Virus record (IMG/VR): IMGVR_UViG_3300025133_000040
Span: 1-64,000 of that record
Strand: one strand, 5' to 3'
From: a virus
DNA length: 64,000 bases
Below the pieces are notes generated by a model. The model was given only the letters and a program-made list of their open reading frames with translations, did no database searches and was not told the DNA's origin. The translations under genes and the position numbers were made by a program. Below are positions 5,767 through 56,534 of this stretch, one piece after another. Within the stretch, counting starts at the first letter, position 1. Every line of letters starts with the position of its first letter.

Positions 5767-6658
5767 CAAAACCAAAAAGTCACAATTTACCGTCACAATC
5801 ACAGGTGAGGACGGACAAGAAAAAGAACTTAGCCTAGCCATTGCCAGTCCTACGTGGGACGAGCAGCAGGATGCTCAGGATAAGTACAACCTAACATTTA
5901 AGAGGGCCTGCGACAACGAAGCGTTGTTGAGACCGCGATTGGATGACTTCTTGAAGGACCAGAAGGTCTGGACGCCTGAAAAAGAGGCCGAGCTAACCAG
6001 CTTGCAGAAGCAATTTCAAGATTTGCTGTATAAGATGTCTAAGGGTGGTTCACTAGACGATTTGGTGCCCCTTACAAGGGAAATTAAGGAGACTCGTAAC
6101 AAGATTAACGAGATAGCCAACGTCAGAGACCAGTATTCAGGTAATACGGCTGAGGGTCAGGCTGAAAACATGCGATTTGCCTGCCTCCTAGCGGCCTCTG
6201 TGGTGTATAATGACACAGGGAAGCGATATTGGCCTACTGTAGATGACTACTTGGCCGAATCTAGCAATGAAGTGGCTGGTGCGGCAGCAGAAAAGTATGC
6301 TGCAATACTTGTCGGCCTTACCGACGAGAACCCAACGGCAGAGTTGCCTGAGAATAAGTTGCTCATTAAGCTAAAGCTGATGAACAAAGATTGTCGCTAC
6401 CTAACTAAGGACACCAAAAAGCCCTATGCTCCTATCAAGGTTGATGGCGAGTGGGTTGACATCCTTCTTGACAAAGAGGGTCGCTTTATCAACGAGGACG
6501 ATGAGCTGATTGACGCTTATGGTCGTTTAGTTGACGAAGATGGTGAGTTTGTCGAGGCTGGTCAGTGGGTTACGGACGAACCCAAGAAGGCCAAAAAGAC
6601 AAAGGCGAAGGTTGAAAAAGAGGCAAAGGCCGAGGCGAAGGACTGGGTCGAAGCCTAG
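5759..6658 (+). CDS. Putative tail assembly chaperone (G-like paralog)
   Basis: Directly upstream of the tape measure gene; helical; C-terminal D..G repeats; paralog of 4299..5390. Confidence 0.55.
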   Translation: MSNKTKKSQFTVTITGEDGQEKELSLAIASPTWDEQQDAQDKYNLTFKRACDNEALLRPRLDDFLKDQKVWTPEKEAELTSLQKQFQDLLYKMSKGGSLDDLVPLTREIKETRNKINEIANVRDQYSGNTAEGQAENMRFACLLAASVVYNDTGKRYWPTVDDYLAESSNEVAGAAAEKYAAILVGLTDENPTAELPENKLLIKLKLMNKDCRYLTKDTKKPYAPIKVDGEWVDILLDKEGRFINEDDELIDAYGRLVDEDGEFVEAGQWVTDEPKKAKKTKAKVEKEAKAEAKDWVEA

Positions 6659-47823: not shown

Positions 47824-48278
47824 TAAAATGCCTCTCTTTCCGCATTTACTAGATGCGCACGGTTCTTTGTTCTTAAAAATGCAAGGTAGCTTAGGAATGG
47901 TTTGACAGGAACGTCTGTCCATCGTAGCTCGGAGATTCCCAAGCGGGTTTTGTTGTGTTGTGCTTGCTCAGCGTCACTGGTAGGGTCAACAAAGTGGCCA
48001 CTGTTTAACTGACGGATGAACATAGAGCCACCAACCTTCATAGCACATGCTAGGTCACGGTCCTTAGCCATGATAGGGGTGCTATCTGGATACACTAGGC
48101 AATGTAGCACAGGGTTTCCGCTTTCGTCGAACGTATCGTTCTTACCAACAATCGTATAGACAATGGTCTCTGCCATGTCATCGCCTGCTGCTGCTTCAAA
48201 TGTTTCAGGCTCTTTAACCGGGCGAAAAATTGCACTATCGGCTTCGTCGTTAAAGGCTCTGTTCGGATTTCTAGCCAT
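47823..48278 (-). CDS. Hypothetical protein
   Basis: 151-aa ORF in operon. Confidence 0.6.
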   Translation of the reverse strand: MARNPNRAFNDEADSAIFRPVKEPETFEAAAGDDMAETIVYTIVGKNDTFDESGNPVLHCLVYPDSTPIMAKDRDLACAMKVGGSMFIRQLNSGHFVDPTSDAEQAQHNKTRLGISELRWTDVPVKPFLSYLAFLRTKNRAHLVNAEREAF

Positions 48279-48655: not shown

Positions 48656-48665
48656 ATTATACACC
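48656..48665 (-). promoter_or_regulatory. Putative phage promoter GGTGTATAAT
   Basis: Intergenic exact motif, 4 nt before the FmdB ATG. Confidence 0.6.
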
Positions 48666-49224: not shown

Positions 49225-49252
49225 AGTATAGGGCAAAACCCACACAAGTCAA
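49225..49252 (-). promoter_or_regulatory. Host sigma70-type promoter for the WYL gene (TTGACT-N16-TATACT)
   Basis: Minus strand: -35 at 49252-49247, -10 at 49230-49225; downstream AATATAT as in the ssb promoter. Confidence 0.6.
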
Positions 49253-49965
49253 GCAATAAAAGCGTTGATTTCGTCCTCTACAGACTCGTCATCGTCGCTT
49301 TCAATGTAAGACTCACCAAGGCCAGCAGCCTCACGAGCCTCAATAATTTGCCTATATCTTTTAGTTAGATGCGGCTCCCACTCTGGTTCAATTTTGTTCC
49401 AGGGAGTTAGACCTAAGATATAGTGAGCGGAACTAGGAGCCTTGGGCCGATAGCCATTAATTAGACGGAAAGAGGTGTCTATAAGCTTGCTGTCAGCCTT
49501 CTCGCTGTTGCACGTACCGCAACATGTAACAATATTTGTCCATGTCGTGGGGCTCCCGCGCCTGTTTTGTTCCTTCCATAGCTTACGAGGGACAACATGG
49601 TCAAGAGTAAGCATGGCTATGTCAGGATACACCTCACCGCAGTACATACAAGTAGACTTATCTCTAATGTAGATATTCTTACGGGAGAATTTAATCTTGC
49701 CCTTCCTAGGCTTATACCTAGGAACCACGCCAACGGCTGGCACAGGGTATTTTCTGCCATGAGTTCCTAGAATGTACTCACTCTTGTAGAAATCAATAAC
49801 ATTAATACCCTTGCTAGGGTCTTCTGAGTATTTCCAACTGTCTTTGACAGCTTCCCTCCAGTTGAGCATACCCAAAGAAGTCCAGTCGGCGTTTAAAACT
49901 AAACACCTACCATGATTCTTCCTCGTAGTGGGCATAACTCGGTTCGCAGATTCTCTGTACGCCAT
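49249..49965 (-). CDS. HNH endonuclease (McrA-like family)
   Basis: CLVLNAD, FSRKNIYIRD..CMYCG, TLDHVVP, WTNIVTCC..CN..K. Start uncertain. Confidence 0.85.
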   Translation of the reverse strand: MAYRESANRVMPTTRKNHGRCLVLNADWTSLGMLNWREAVKDSWKYSEDPSKGINVIDFYKSEYILGTHGRKYPVPAVGVVPRYKPRKGKIKFSRKNIYIRDKSTCMYCGEVYPDIAMLTLDHVVPRKLWKEQNRRGSPTTWTNIVTCCGTCNSEKADSKLIDTSFRLINGYRPKAPSSAHYILGLTPWNKIEPEWEPHLTKRYRQIIEAREAAGLGESYIESDDDESVEDEINAFIA

Positions 49966-50695
49966 TTTCCAAATCCTCAATACGGTCCACGATTCTCTGA
50001 ACTAATTCAGAGCGGACAATGTCGTCCTTAGTCAAGTGAGAAACCCCTACACCCCTCACATCCTGCAATGTCTCAGCCAACCTCAACATACTGCCAGCTA
50101 CGCCATCATTCAGGTCTGTTTGGTCTGGGTCTCCTGTGATTACCATTGTACTACCAAATCCGATTCGAGTCAAGGCACTTTTTAGCTGTCCGTAGGAAGC
50201 ATTTTGAGCCTCGTCAAGGATAATGAAGGAGTTTTTGAATGTCCTACCCCTCATATTGCCTAGAGTACACACTTCAATGGTCTCTCTATTGAGCAATCTT
50301 CTGAAGTCGTCTTCAGTAAGGTAGTTCTTCATTTCGTCGTAGATAGGGCGTAAGAACGGCATGGTCTTCTTCTCTAATGTGCCAGGAAGAAAGCCGGTAC
50401 GTTCATTTTCGATAGTCACAAGAGGACGGGTAACGATAATCTTCTCGTAGTTACCCTTAGCTAGACCTAGGATAGCTTCTGATGCAGCTATAAAGGTTTT
50501 ACCAGTGCCAGGGGGGCCTATTGCAAACGTCACCTCATTTCGATGTATCGTTTTTAGGTAGGATTTTTGCCCTGGAGTCTTAGCCGTAACTTCCCATTGT
50601 TTTAAGTTAAGGCCAGTGTCTTCTCGTTGACTTTTTCGTTGTTTTCTGCGTGTTGGCATGGGATTGTCTCTCAAGTTAGTAGTAGTATTGTCCAT
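49907..50695 (-). CDS. phoH: PhoH-like ATPase
   Basis: GPPGTGKT, TRP, GFLPG, MRGRTF, ILDEAQN, GDPDQTD, DIVRS. Confidence 0.93.
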   Translation of the reverse strand: MDNTTTNLRDNPMPTRRKQRKSQREDTGLNLKQWEVTAKTPGQKSYLKTIHRNEVTFAIGPPGTGKTFIAASEAILGLAKGNYEKIIVTRPLVTIENERTGFLPGTLEKKTMPFLRPIYDEMKNYLTEDDFRRLLNRETIEVCTLGNMRGRTFKNSFIILDEAQNASYGQLKSALTRIGFGSTMVITGDPDQTDLNDGVAGSMLRLAETLQDVRGVGVSHLTKDDIVRSELVQRIVDRIEDLENGVQRICEPSYAHYEEESW

Positions 50696-53040: not shown

Positions 53041-53310
53041 TTATGTTGTTTTCTTTGCTTGTTGTTTCTCAGCGTACTTAGATGCTTCCCTGGCTAGTTT
53101 GTCAGCGGCCTTGCCCTTAGGTAGTTCGCTCTTAGCTGCTGACGTTCTTCTTTTGTTTCTGCGGGGCTTGCCTTGATACTTAAGGTAGAAATCTGAGATT
53201 GCGCCTGCATCATCAGACCTAAGCACTTTACGTTGACCAGTAGGATTTCCTTGAGCATCTTTTACGTACAAAACCAACTCAAAGTTTTTACTATCTTGTT
53301 TTTCCTTCAT
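53041..53310 (-). CDS. Small basic hypothetical protein
   Basis: GAGG RBS; 89 aa, K/R-rich. Confidence 0.65.
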   Translation of the reverse strand: MKEKQDSKNFELVLYVKDAQGNPTGQRKVLRSDDAGAISDFYLKYQGKPRRNKRRTSAAKSELPKGKAADKLAREASKYAEKQQAKKTT

Positions 53311-53328: not shown

Positions 53329-53360
53329 AAAAAAAGACCCGCCACACGAGATGACGGGTC
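53329..53360 (-). terminator. Rho-independent terminator in the leader of the nrdJ operon
   Basis: Minus strand GACCCGTCAT-ctcgt-GTGGCGGGTC-T7. Confidence 0.8.
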
Positions 53361-53547
53361 GTAATTTTTGACAGCGACACAATTAAGTTTTGGACCTTCT
53401 GTGATACTGGGTTAAAGTTGCTCAACGGTAGTTAACACGTTTTTCTTGTCAATGTTTAAGTATCATCACGGTCCAGAGTGTGGGTCGGAGAGGTGTCGCT
53501 GTAACGGGCGTTATTGAAAATGCTGCCGCTCTTTATGTTCCCCGACT
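53329..53547 (-). ncRNA. Candidate ~220-nt structured RNA (riboswitch/attenuator or stand-alone sRNA)
   Basis: Bounded by a GGTGTATAAT motif and a terminator; nested stems of 10, 6 and 6 bp; possible pseudoknot; no ORF. Confidence 0.6.
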
Positions 53548-53552
53548 ATCTT

Positions 53553-53562
53553 ATTATACACC
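53553..53562 (-). promoter_or_regulatory. Putative phage promoter GGTGTATAAT
   Basis: Exact motif overlapping the dCMP deaminase stop, directly upstream of the structured intergenic region. Confidence 0.55.
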
Positions 53563-54150
53563 TGGAAAAGTCATCTCTCGGAATAACATTTTCCCAAATG
53601 CTAAGTGTTTAAATATTTCCATAAAAACTACGTAATCTTCTGTCTCTGCGGCCTTATGTGGGCGTCCAGCGTGTATCACCTCCACAACACCGGCCTGTCT
53701 CATAAGCATTGTACAGTATTCACAGGTAAGGTTGGTGACATACACCTTGGAGCCCTTAAGGGATGTTCCATTGTAGGCAGCGTTGCAGATACCGTTAGCT
53801 TCTGAGTGTACCATCCACTCATACTTAGCCTTGAGCCTACCTGTTTCATCTCTCATGTTAGGTAAAACAGAATCGTCGAAATCCCTGGGGAAACCATTGT
53901 AACCAGTGACTAGCTCTTTGTTATCCCTTACGAAGACACAGCCAACTTTTGTTTGAGCGTCATGGCTACGCTTAGCAACGTCAAAGGCCCTACCCATAAA
54001 GAAAGTGTCCCAGCAGGGCCTCTCGTGGGGGACTTGAAATTCCTTGTATTCCTCAAGGCGTTTTCTAGCTGCGGAGGATAGCTTAGGAGGTCTGCTAACA
54101 GCCCTGCCTTGCCATACCCCATCTTCTGTATAATATGATTCCCTTGCCAT
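53554..54150 (-). CDS. dCMP deaminase
   Basis: KVGCV, TGYNGFP, HSEAN, TCEYC. Confidence 0.9.
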   Translation of the reverse strand: MARESYYTEDGVWQGRAVSRPPKLSSAARKRLEEYKEFQVPHERPCWDTFFMGRAFDVAKRSHDAQTKVGCVFVRDNKELVTGYNGFPRDFDDSVLPNMRDETGRLKAKYEWMVHSEANGICNAAYNGTSLKGSKVYVTNLTCEYCTMLMRQAGVVEVIHAGRPHKAAETEDYVVFMEIFKHLAFGKMLFREMTFPGV

Positions 54151-55883: not shown

Positions 55884-56534
55884 CTAGTGTGTCCTATCTT
55901 TTGAGTTCCTGTTCATACTATTATACACCGCCATTGGCGATTGGAAGTTAATTCCATATATATTAGATGTCTTTACAGTGTCATATTGGTTTGACTTCCA
56001 GATTTTCCCGTTAGTTATGCAGGATACTCCGTACTTTTCCTGCAATTCTAAGGCCCATAGCAGGTTGTCAGAAAAATCGTCAAGAAAATTCCCATTAGAC
56101 GGGTAGAAATACTCAACCCCCAGGTCGCACGCAATAGCCGTCACTTCGTAGATGGTCTTACTATCCATGGCGCGATAGTCTAGCATGACCCTGAGGGTAG
56201 ACCCGTGCTCCTCACACACCTTCCTCTGGGACTCTATATCGTCGGCAACCAGCTCAAGTTTGCGGTTGGCCGTCCATACGGTGGGTATGACCAGATTGAT
56301 GGCGTTGGCCCCTCGCCTAATAGCAGAAAGGGCTGAGTGGCTACGGACAGACGACTCCAGGGTGTTCACTTCTGCCGCAATATCTATATCTTTTTTGACC
56401 ACCTCGCGGAACAAAGGGATAAAAAACGGGCTCGTAAGTACGCTATTGCACCCTAGCTCTATAGACTGGAAGAAGCCCTGTAGGGCATCATCCTCTTTAA
56501 GGTCTCTTCCTTTGATTGTTACTTCCTTATACAC
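55884..56534 (-). CDS. DeoC (deoxyribose-phosphate aldolase)-like TIM barrel, probably catalytically degenerate
   Basis: AIRRGANAINLVI, LRVMLD, A.DLGVEYFYPSNG (where DeoC has F.KTSTG). Confidence 0.65.
   Translation of the reverse strand: MYKEVTIKGRDLKEDDALQGFFQSIELGCNSVLTSPFFIPLFREVVKKDIDIAAEVNTLESSVRSHSALSAIRRGANAINLVIPTVWTANRKLELVADDIESQRKVCEEHGSTLRVMLDYRAMDSKTIYEVTAIACDLGVEYFYPSNGNFLDDFSDNLLWALELQEKYGVSCITNGKIWKSNQYDTVKTSNIYGINFQSPMAVYNSMNRNSKDRTH
55920..55929 (-). promoter_or_regulatory. Putative phage promoter GGTGTATAAT
   Basis: Exact motif about 70 nt upstream of the 55848 start. Confidence 0.55.

Follow-up and report, generated by a model that had tools for sequence, protein, structure and literature searches.

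A conserved, predicted pseudoknotted RNA with its own putative promoter and terminator precedes a ribonucleotide reductase operon in uncultured phages

Ribonucleotide reductase (RNR) genes are among the commonest auxiliary metabolic genes of marine phages, and to our knowledge little has been established about how phages control them. Among the systems described so far, the 2'-deoxyguanosine riboswitch of Mesoplasma florum and the cobalamin riboswitches located before nrd genes show the same order of promoter, structured domain, terminator and ribosome-binding site (RBS) of a nucleotide-metabolism operon as the phage element reported here. The likeness includes the gene association and the presence of conserved unpaired bases in the structured domain, whereas the fold is different, the phage element being a predicted H-type pseudoknot with an inserted hairpin and without a conserved antiterminator overlapping the structured domain. 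In the nut sites of phage lambda, putL and putR of HK022 and the EAR element of Bacillus, a structured RNA is likewise found between a promoter and a terminator that needs to be read through, and no helix competing with the terminator is needed; EAR also contains a pseudoknot. The phage element has no sequence or structural likeness to the two-hairpin fold of put or to boxA/boxB, and on reading the element sequences no boxA-like word was found consistently at a common position. Also, the terminators on which put and nut elements act are distal ones, while that of the phage element follows at once. Stand-alone small RNAs have the same standard build, in which a structured body with its own promoter is followed by an A/U-rich linker and a U-tailed terminator, and those of the Hfq type resemble the element in their own promoter, A/U-rich stretch, GC-rich terminator hairpin, U-tail and length (150-220 nt), but differ from it in that its body is pseudoknotted, which is unusual there, and in that it is fixed before one promoterless operon. 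With 6S RNA the element shares its size and the notion of a phage-encoded RNA acting on the transcription machinery; 6S RNA is a rod with a central bubble and paired ends, in contrast to the 5' pseudoknot, hairpins, 3' terminator and unpaired ends of the element.

The stretch of DNA analysed, here called the window, covers 64,000 nucleotides (positions 1 to 64,000 of IMG/VR record IMGVR_UViG_3300025133_000040) and belongs to a contig of 111.8 kb from an uncultured marine phage. Its minus strand carries, in this order, a dCMP deaminase gene (53554-54150), a 243-nt ORF-free gap, a small ORF of 89 amino acids (53310-53041, with the ATG at 53310), nrdJ encoding a B12-dependent RNR (53030-50706) and phoH (50722-49907), directly after which an HNH homing-endonuclease-like ORF (49252-49980, minus strand) ends the RNR block. 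According to a promoter scan the deaminase gene has its own sigma-70-like promoter (TTGACT-16-TATACT, 54184-54157, minus strand). An earlier note, made from the sequence alone, had taken the gap before the small ORF to be the largest non-coding gap in the window, which is incorrect, as by crude ORF calling the ORF-free gaps at 24557-24961 (405 nt) and 47923-48270 (348 nt) exceed it; an Rfam search of these two gave no match. No tRNA or tmRNA was detected by ARAGORN in the gap under study. For the gap as a whole the energy z-score reaches only -1.69; the case for a structured RNA is built on comparison between lineages and not on energy.

Homologues were located with a profile of the small ORF (216 clusters) combined with a scan of viral contigs, which gave six lineages possessing the ORF. 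Five of these six have the element immediately before the small ORF, namely the window and four further uncultured-phage lineages (L027, L177, L179 and L178), while the sixth (L175) has the small ORF and lacks the RNA. The dCMP deaminases of the homologue lineages are 36-42% identical to that of the window, and L027, with an nrdJ 59% and a small ORF 43% identical to those of the window, carries an evidently homologous element. A covariance model constructed from L179 alone retrieved the elements of L177 (E = 3e-5) and the window (E = 2.7e-4) at full length and in the expected places, and gave no match on the loci of element-less relatives. With the same model L027 scored only 9.6 bits with filters off, and the diverged element of L178 (L178:2259-2461, plus strand), in which both strands of the pseudoknot helix and both strands of the long stem P2 are exchanged, was recognised by its architecture and not by covariance-model score. 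Whether homologues keep their place had been proposed as a check in the earlier note, and they do: in all five lineages the element precedes the small ORF and an RNR gene, all copies being syntenic. The downstream RNR is of three kinds, a window-type nrdJ, a barrel-type enzyme with a TSCPD domain (L178) and a barrel-type enzyme with a LAGLIDADG intein (L179), the latter two sharing 28% identity. An additional ORF of 88 aa separates the element from the deaminase gene in L179, where the element still adjoins the small ORF.

The element occurs as a single copy in each genome or locus searched. About 20 phages with a 60%-identical nrdJ have a gapless locus, in which the deaminase gene is followed at once by a different small ORF and then nrdJ, and in neither of two huge-phage records with the closest L178-type RNR is the element found upstream. 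Exact-pattern scans of viral and metagenome contigs recovered only the lineages already known, and neither the gap nor the small ORF matched any GenBank phage in a BLAST search. Near-identical contigs (99.6%) were uninformative for comparison. Among strain variants there are no substitutions in the 243-nt gap versus eight in about 660 nt of flanking coding DNA (p ~0.05), a weak sign of constraint on the gap.

The gap starts at a promoter motif, as had been noticed earlier, this being the -10 word GGTGTATAAT at 53562-53553 on the minus strand (TATAAT = 53558-53553), inside which the TAA stop codon of the dCMP deaminase gene is found. The assignment is supported both by recurrence and by the homologues. 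Four copies are present in the window (6202-6211 on the plus strand; 48656-48665, 53553-53562 and 55920-55929 on the minus strand) versus 0.04 expected, and none of 100 shuffles reached four, which points to a recurrent promoter word of this phage; three of the copies lie on the coding strand closely upstream of genes. The homologous elements of L177 (GGTGTATAAT) and L179 (GGTGTATTAA) are preceded by the same word; the words before the other two are AGTGTATAT in L178 and GCGTATAAT in L027. No recognisable -35 element accompanies GGTGTATAAT at 53562-53553, which explains why the promoter is missing from the list produced by the promoter scan. The phage also has classical TTGACT-17-GTATAAT promoters, distinct from this -10-only class. 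In all five lineages the end of the -10 word lies 4-7 nt before the first RNA helix, and the predicted start is consequently the first base of the G-box (see below) in the window; in L177 it is the first base of an extra 5' hairpin.

The predicted RNA is 217 nt long in the window and 149-155 nt in three relatives. The common order is -10 word, G-box, AU(U)AAAG, hairpin P1, P2 5' strand (P2a), C-box, a variable region or P3, P2 3' strand (P2b), A/U-rich linker, terminator and RBS. In the window, on the minus strand throughout, the G-box GUCGGGGA (53546-53539) constitutes the 5' strand of the pseudoknot helix and begins at the predicted start, the seventh nucleotide after the -10 word. It is followed by the unpaired AUAAAG (53536-53531), present in all five lineages and directly 5' of P1 (53530-53503), which in turn is followed by P2a, ACAGCGACAC (53502-53493). 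The C-box UCUCCGAC (53491-53484), the 3' strand of the pseudoknot helix, is located in the P2 loop 1 nt past P2a, and after the 86-nt variable arm P3 (53476-53391) and P2b, GUGUCGCUGU (53380-53371), comes an unpaired A/U-rich linker (53370-53361), the sequence of which is not conserved. The stem sequence of P1 is different in each lineage, although the hairpin always abuts AUAAAG and P2. The AUAAAG word has the variant AUUAAAG in L178. The idea that CATAAAG is a repeated promoter word was rejected, as it is not a repeated genomic motif of the window's phage, and the word is thus regarded as a feature of the RNA. L027, L177 and L179 have a far shorter P3, and in L178 the C-box and P2b are 83 nt apart. 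Of the nested stems drawn in the earlier note, the perfect 10-bp stem corresponding to P2 is present in the minimum-free-energy folds, whereas the inner stems are lineage-specific and fall within P3. The pseudoknot proposed there stood up to analysis, the G-box and C-box forming 8 bp that cross the long stem (shuffle p = 0.007).

Both helices, P2 and the pseudoknot helix, stay paired through compensatory changes in five lineages, the covariation whose absence had been named earlier as a ground for refutation. P2 comprises 9-10 canonical pairs in every lineage, with double changes in three columns among the four closer lineages, and in L178 GGUAUG/CAUACC replaces GUGACAC/GUGUCAC, so that with L178 included (by manual register of the strands) compensatory changes are seen in 8 of 10 columns. 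When three lineages are aligned by fitting to the model, pairing of P2 is 100% with three double changes, and the structure outperforms all slid controls. The G-box/C-box helix has 8, 5, 7, 6 and 6 canonical pairs in the five lineages, with differing flanks, and is fully exchanged in L178 (CCAAGA/UCUUGG). In shuffles of the P2-enclosed sequence the per-lineage p-values are 0.007-0.045 and the combined value is 6e-6, which is optimistic because a GGG/CCC core is inherited in four lineages. The covariation statistics are in general thin, being drawn from five lineages that are all syntenic, and L027 and L178 were aligned manually; MAFFT misaligns the 5' half of the element. As the C-box always lies within the P2 loop and the G-box outside it, the two helices cross, which defines an H-type pseudoknot with the strand order G-box, P2a, C-box, P2b in all five lineages and with loops of 30-43 nt (L1), 1-17 nt (L2) and 15-103 nt (L3); we infer that the two helices form at the same time. 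G-U pairs in P2 (L177) and in the pseudoknot helix (window) point to an RNA of the minus strand and not to DNA. Judged by this comparison of sequences, the gap holds a real, conserved, pseudoknotted RNA with its own putative promoter and terminator.

The intrinsic terminator of the window (53360-53329, minus strand) consists of a 10-bp hairpin (53360-53336) and a run of seven U (53335-53329). The RBS GAGAGGA (53323-53317) comes next and the small ORF starts 18 nt past the end of the U-run, in agreement with the strong terminator that had been placed right before the RBS. Hairpin and U-run terminators are found in four lineages (8-13 bp, hairpin probability 0.99-1.0), 10-15 unconserved nucleotides separating them from P2. 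L178 has no separate terminator hairpin; the 3' strand of P2 runs directly into U6, and the conserved fold and the stop signal therefore coincide there. In each of the five lineages the start codon comes within about 20-40 nt of the U-run. Between strains the U-run differs in length by one. Three lineages with ~40%-identical neighbouring proteins share an invariant terminator-stem base, ACCCG.C / G.CGGGU, which is more conserved than usual for terminators and is complementary to the GGG of the G-box.

The terminator had also been proposed to be switchable, GCCCGUUAC(A) being the strand thought to pair with its 3' arm. This pairing is present in the window, where GCCCGUUACA and the 3' arm can form 10 bp (three of them G-U), but an equivalent was found in none of the four homologues. 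Competing pairings were searched for in folds of transcripts ending before the 3' arm of the terminator, in pair probabilities of the full transcript and in a listing of the best helices that either arm can form with any sequence upstream. No conserved partner for either terminator arm, and thus no conserved antiterminator sharing bases with the structured domain, was found in the five lineages. The sole recurring alternative is a helix of 3-5 bp between the G-box and the ACCC of the terminator, far weaker than the terminators. A longer helix, formed with the terminator when the 5' flank is included, was rejected, since this flank precedes the predicted start and neither L177 nor L179 has the helix. 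These results do not support a conserved structural terminator/antiterminator switch.

In a cmscan against Rfam, a check suggested by the earlier note, the element gave no match at gathering score, and a known riboswitch consensus, which that note had failed to recognise, was likewise not matched. At E <= 10 there are only chance matches carried by the terminator, and weak near-matches to enterobacterial small RNAs derive solely from the module of linker, hairpin and U-tail. Neither the cobalamin riboswitch model (RF00174) nor a B12 box was matched at E <= 10. The purine/2'-dG riboswitch model also gave no match in the element, and its three-way junction with a loop-loop contact differs from the topology found here. 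The idea of a 6S-like decoy did not hold, as no match to Rfam 6S (RF00013) was obtained at gathering score or at E <= 10 and the fold is not a rod with a bubble. The general features of a terminating riboswitch that were found are the covarying domain, the position as leader of related genes and the intrinsic terminator (in L178 the P2 3' strand and U6), while no conserved, mutually exclusive antiterminator was found. No description of an element of this kind ahead of phage RNR genes turned up in a literature search. The text of a 2023 catalogue of ~10,000 candidate structured RNAs in IMG/VR does not mention RNR, and the catalogue may include the element. With no Rfam match, the element is, by its sequence, a member of an uncatalogued phage RNA family.

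The reading that we tentatively put forward, with a confidence slightly short of even, is that the element acts in cis as a leader, the terminator of which gates transcription into the operon of the small ORF and RNR. Transcription would begin at the -10-only promoter GGTGTATAAT, and the first transcribed bases, those of the G-box, would pair with the C-box within the P2 loop to form the H-type pseudoknot, which would also carry P1, the AU(U)AAAG word and the variable arm P3. The default product would be a short RNA ended at the intrinsic terminator, and polymerases expressing the small ORF, nrdJ and phoH would have to read through it. The spacing between terminator and start codon leaves no room for a promoter and a promoter scan inside the small ORF found none, which implies that the operon is expressed only via terminator read-through. 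What the sequences show is a family of RNAs with its fold, promoter word, terminator and gene context; we infer further that this read-through would be regulated, the pseudoknot domain receiving a signal that may be a small ligand, the adjacent basic small protein or an antitermination factor of phage or host. That the RNA stays with the small ORF in five of six lineages while the kind of RNR changes, taken together with the need for read-through, fits a cis-acting gate. The attenuator of RNR envisaged in the earlier note is hence the best reading on context, upstream of small ORF and RNR in five of five lineages, but the switch that was proposed for it is not conserved. The lack of an antiterminator suggests, by analogy with nut, put and EAR, that control may be exerted through a bound factor, and a classical two-hairpin riboswitch is less likely. 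As the five copies share one syntenic position, this position may reflect descent rather than function.

The main rival to the cis-acting leader, to which we assign a probability clearly below even, is that the element is a stand-alone phage small RNA that works in trans, either through base-pairing or by binding or sequestering a protein; the RNR operon would then be expressed by constitutive leakage through the terminator. A discrete transcription unit with a strong terminator, the resemblance of the A/U-rich linker, hairpin and U-tail to an Hfq-type 3' module, the 5' end locked in a helix, as is typical of stable RNAs, and the absence of a conserved antiterminator are all in line with this. 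A strong terminator without a later promoter would, however, be polar on a needed RNR operon, and yet it is kept in five of five diverged lineages; furthermore, all five lineages share only one unpaired word, and its 6 nt would make a short seed, and in L179 the element has stayed with the small ORF and not with the deaminase gene. It is improbable that the gap is an unregulated inter-cistronic spacer, composed of the 3' UTR of the deaminase gene, a terminator and an internal promoter, in which the fold stabilises RNA ends or insulates the units. The deaminase gene does have its own promoter and runs into the element, and element-less relatives simply couple this gene to the next, but in a spacer the pseudoknot, the long-range helix and the word AU(U)AAAG would not be preserved through compensatory change while the neighbouring proteins are ~40% identical.

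Very improbable, in turn, is an element operating at the level of DNA, be it protein-binding inverted repeats, a recombination cassette like the promoter-early stem-loops (PeSL) of T4-like phages or a small mobile insertion. Its presence in some relatives and absence in others at the same junction, and the combination of promoter and stem-loop as in PeSL cassettes, would be expected of such an element, whereas the G-U pairs are strand-specific, the crossing helix covaries, which is meaningless in duplex DNA, and only one copy is found per genome or locus searched. Three further candidates were rejected: a leader peptide, since no start codon or ORF is shared among the elements; NrdR boxes, since there is no 16-bp palindrome; and anti-SD pairing of the C-box, which fits the window only.

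Within the preferred reading of a cis-acting leader, a more specific and rather unlikely version is that the pseudoknot forms the aptamer of a riboswitch of a new class, or of an equivalent that responds to the adjacent basic small protein, and would sense the (deoxy)nucleotide state of the infected cell and control read-through of the terminator into the RNR gene. If so, marine phages would have an RNA counterpart of NrdR-type feedback. The element, which is short enough to be assayed directly in vitro, in any case offers a concrete and testable control point, with its own putative promoter and a terminator that the RNR operon cannot bypass, and a nucleotide-related riboswitch, a protein-RNA autoregulatory pair or an antitermination site would each be a novelty in the nucleotide metabolism of phages.

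The protein encoded by the small ORF is a member of an unnamed family, 80-100 aa in length and comprising 216 clusters at 50% identity, whose genes stand just before an RNR gene in every locus seen, with homologues at L027:3753-4001, L177:2483-2731, L179:2480-2719, L178:2462-2737 and L175:2483-2776. Comparison with Pfam and PHROG gave no match, and a search of species genomes for the family found none. The family pattern is FEL.L.V(K/R)D..GNPTG.RK ... QGKPKRKKK ... LP.AKEA.KI, and in the predicted fold of the protein (mean pLDDT 86) a beta-hairpin and a helix are followed by a K/R-rich basic linker and then by a long helix. No significant structural match to the predicted fold was obtained, the likeness to ribosomal protein eS21 being weak and non-significant. 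The N-terminal motif of the family also occurs in 4-15 repeats in a few giant proteins. Downstream of the small ORF, the RNR genes of the relatives (L027:4001-7183, L177:2731-5196, L175:2905-5235 and L179:2772-5114) are interrupted, in the last case by the LAGLIDADG intein. In L027, L177 and L175 the interruption is an insertion of ~1 kb between nrdJ residues ~329 and 367, which could be an intein or an intron, while nrdJ of the window is uninterrupted.
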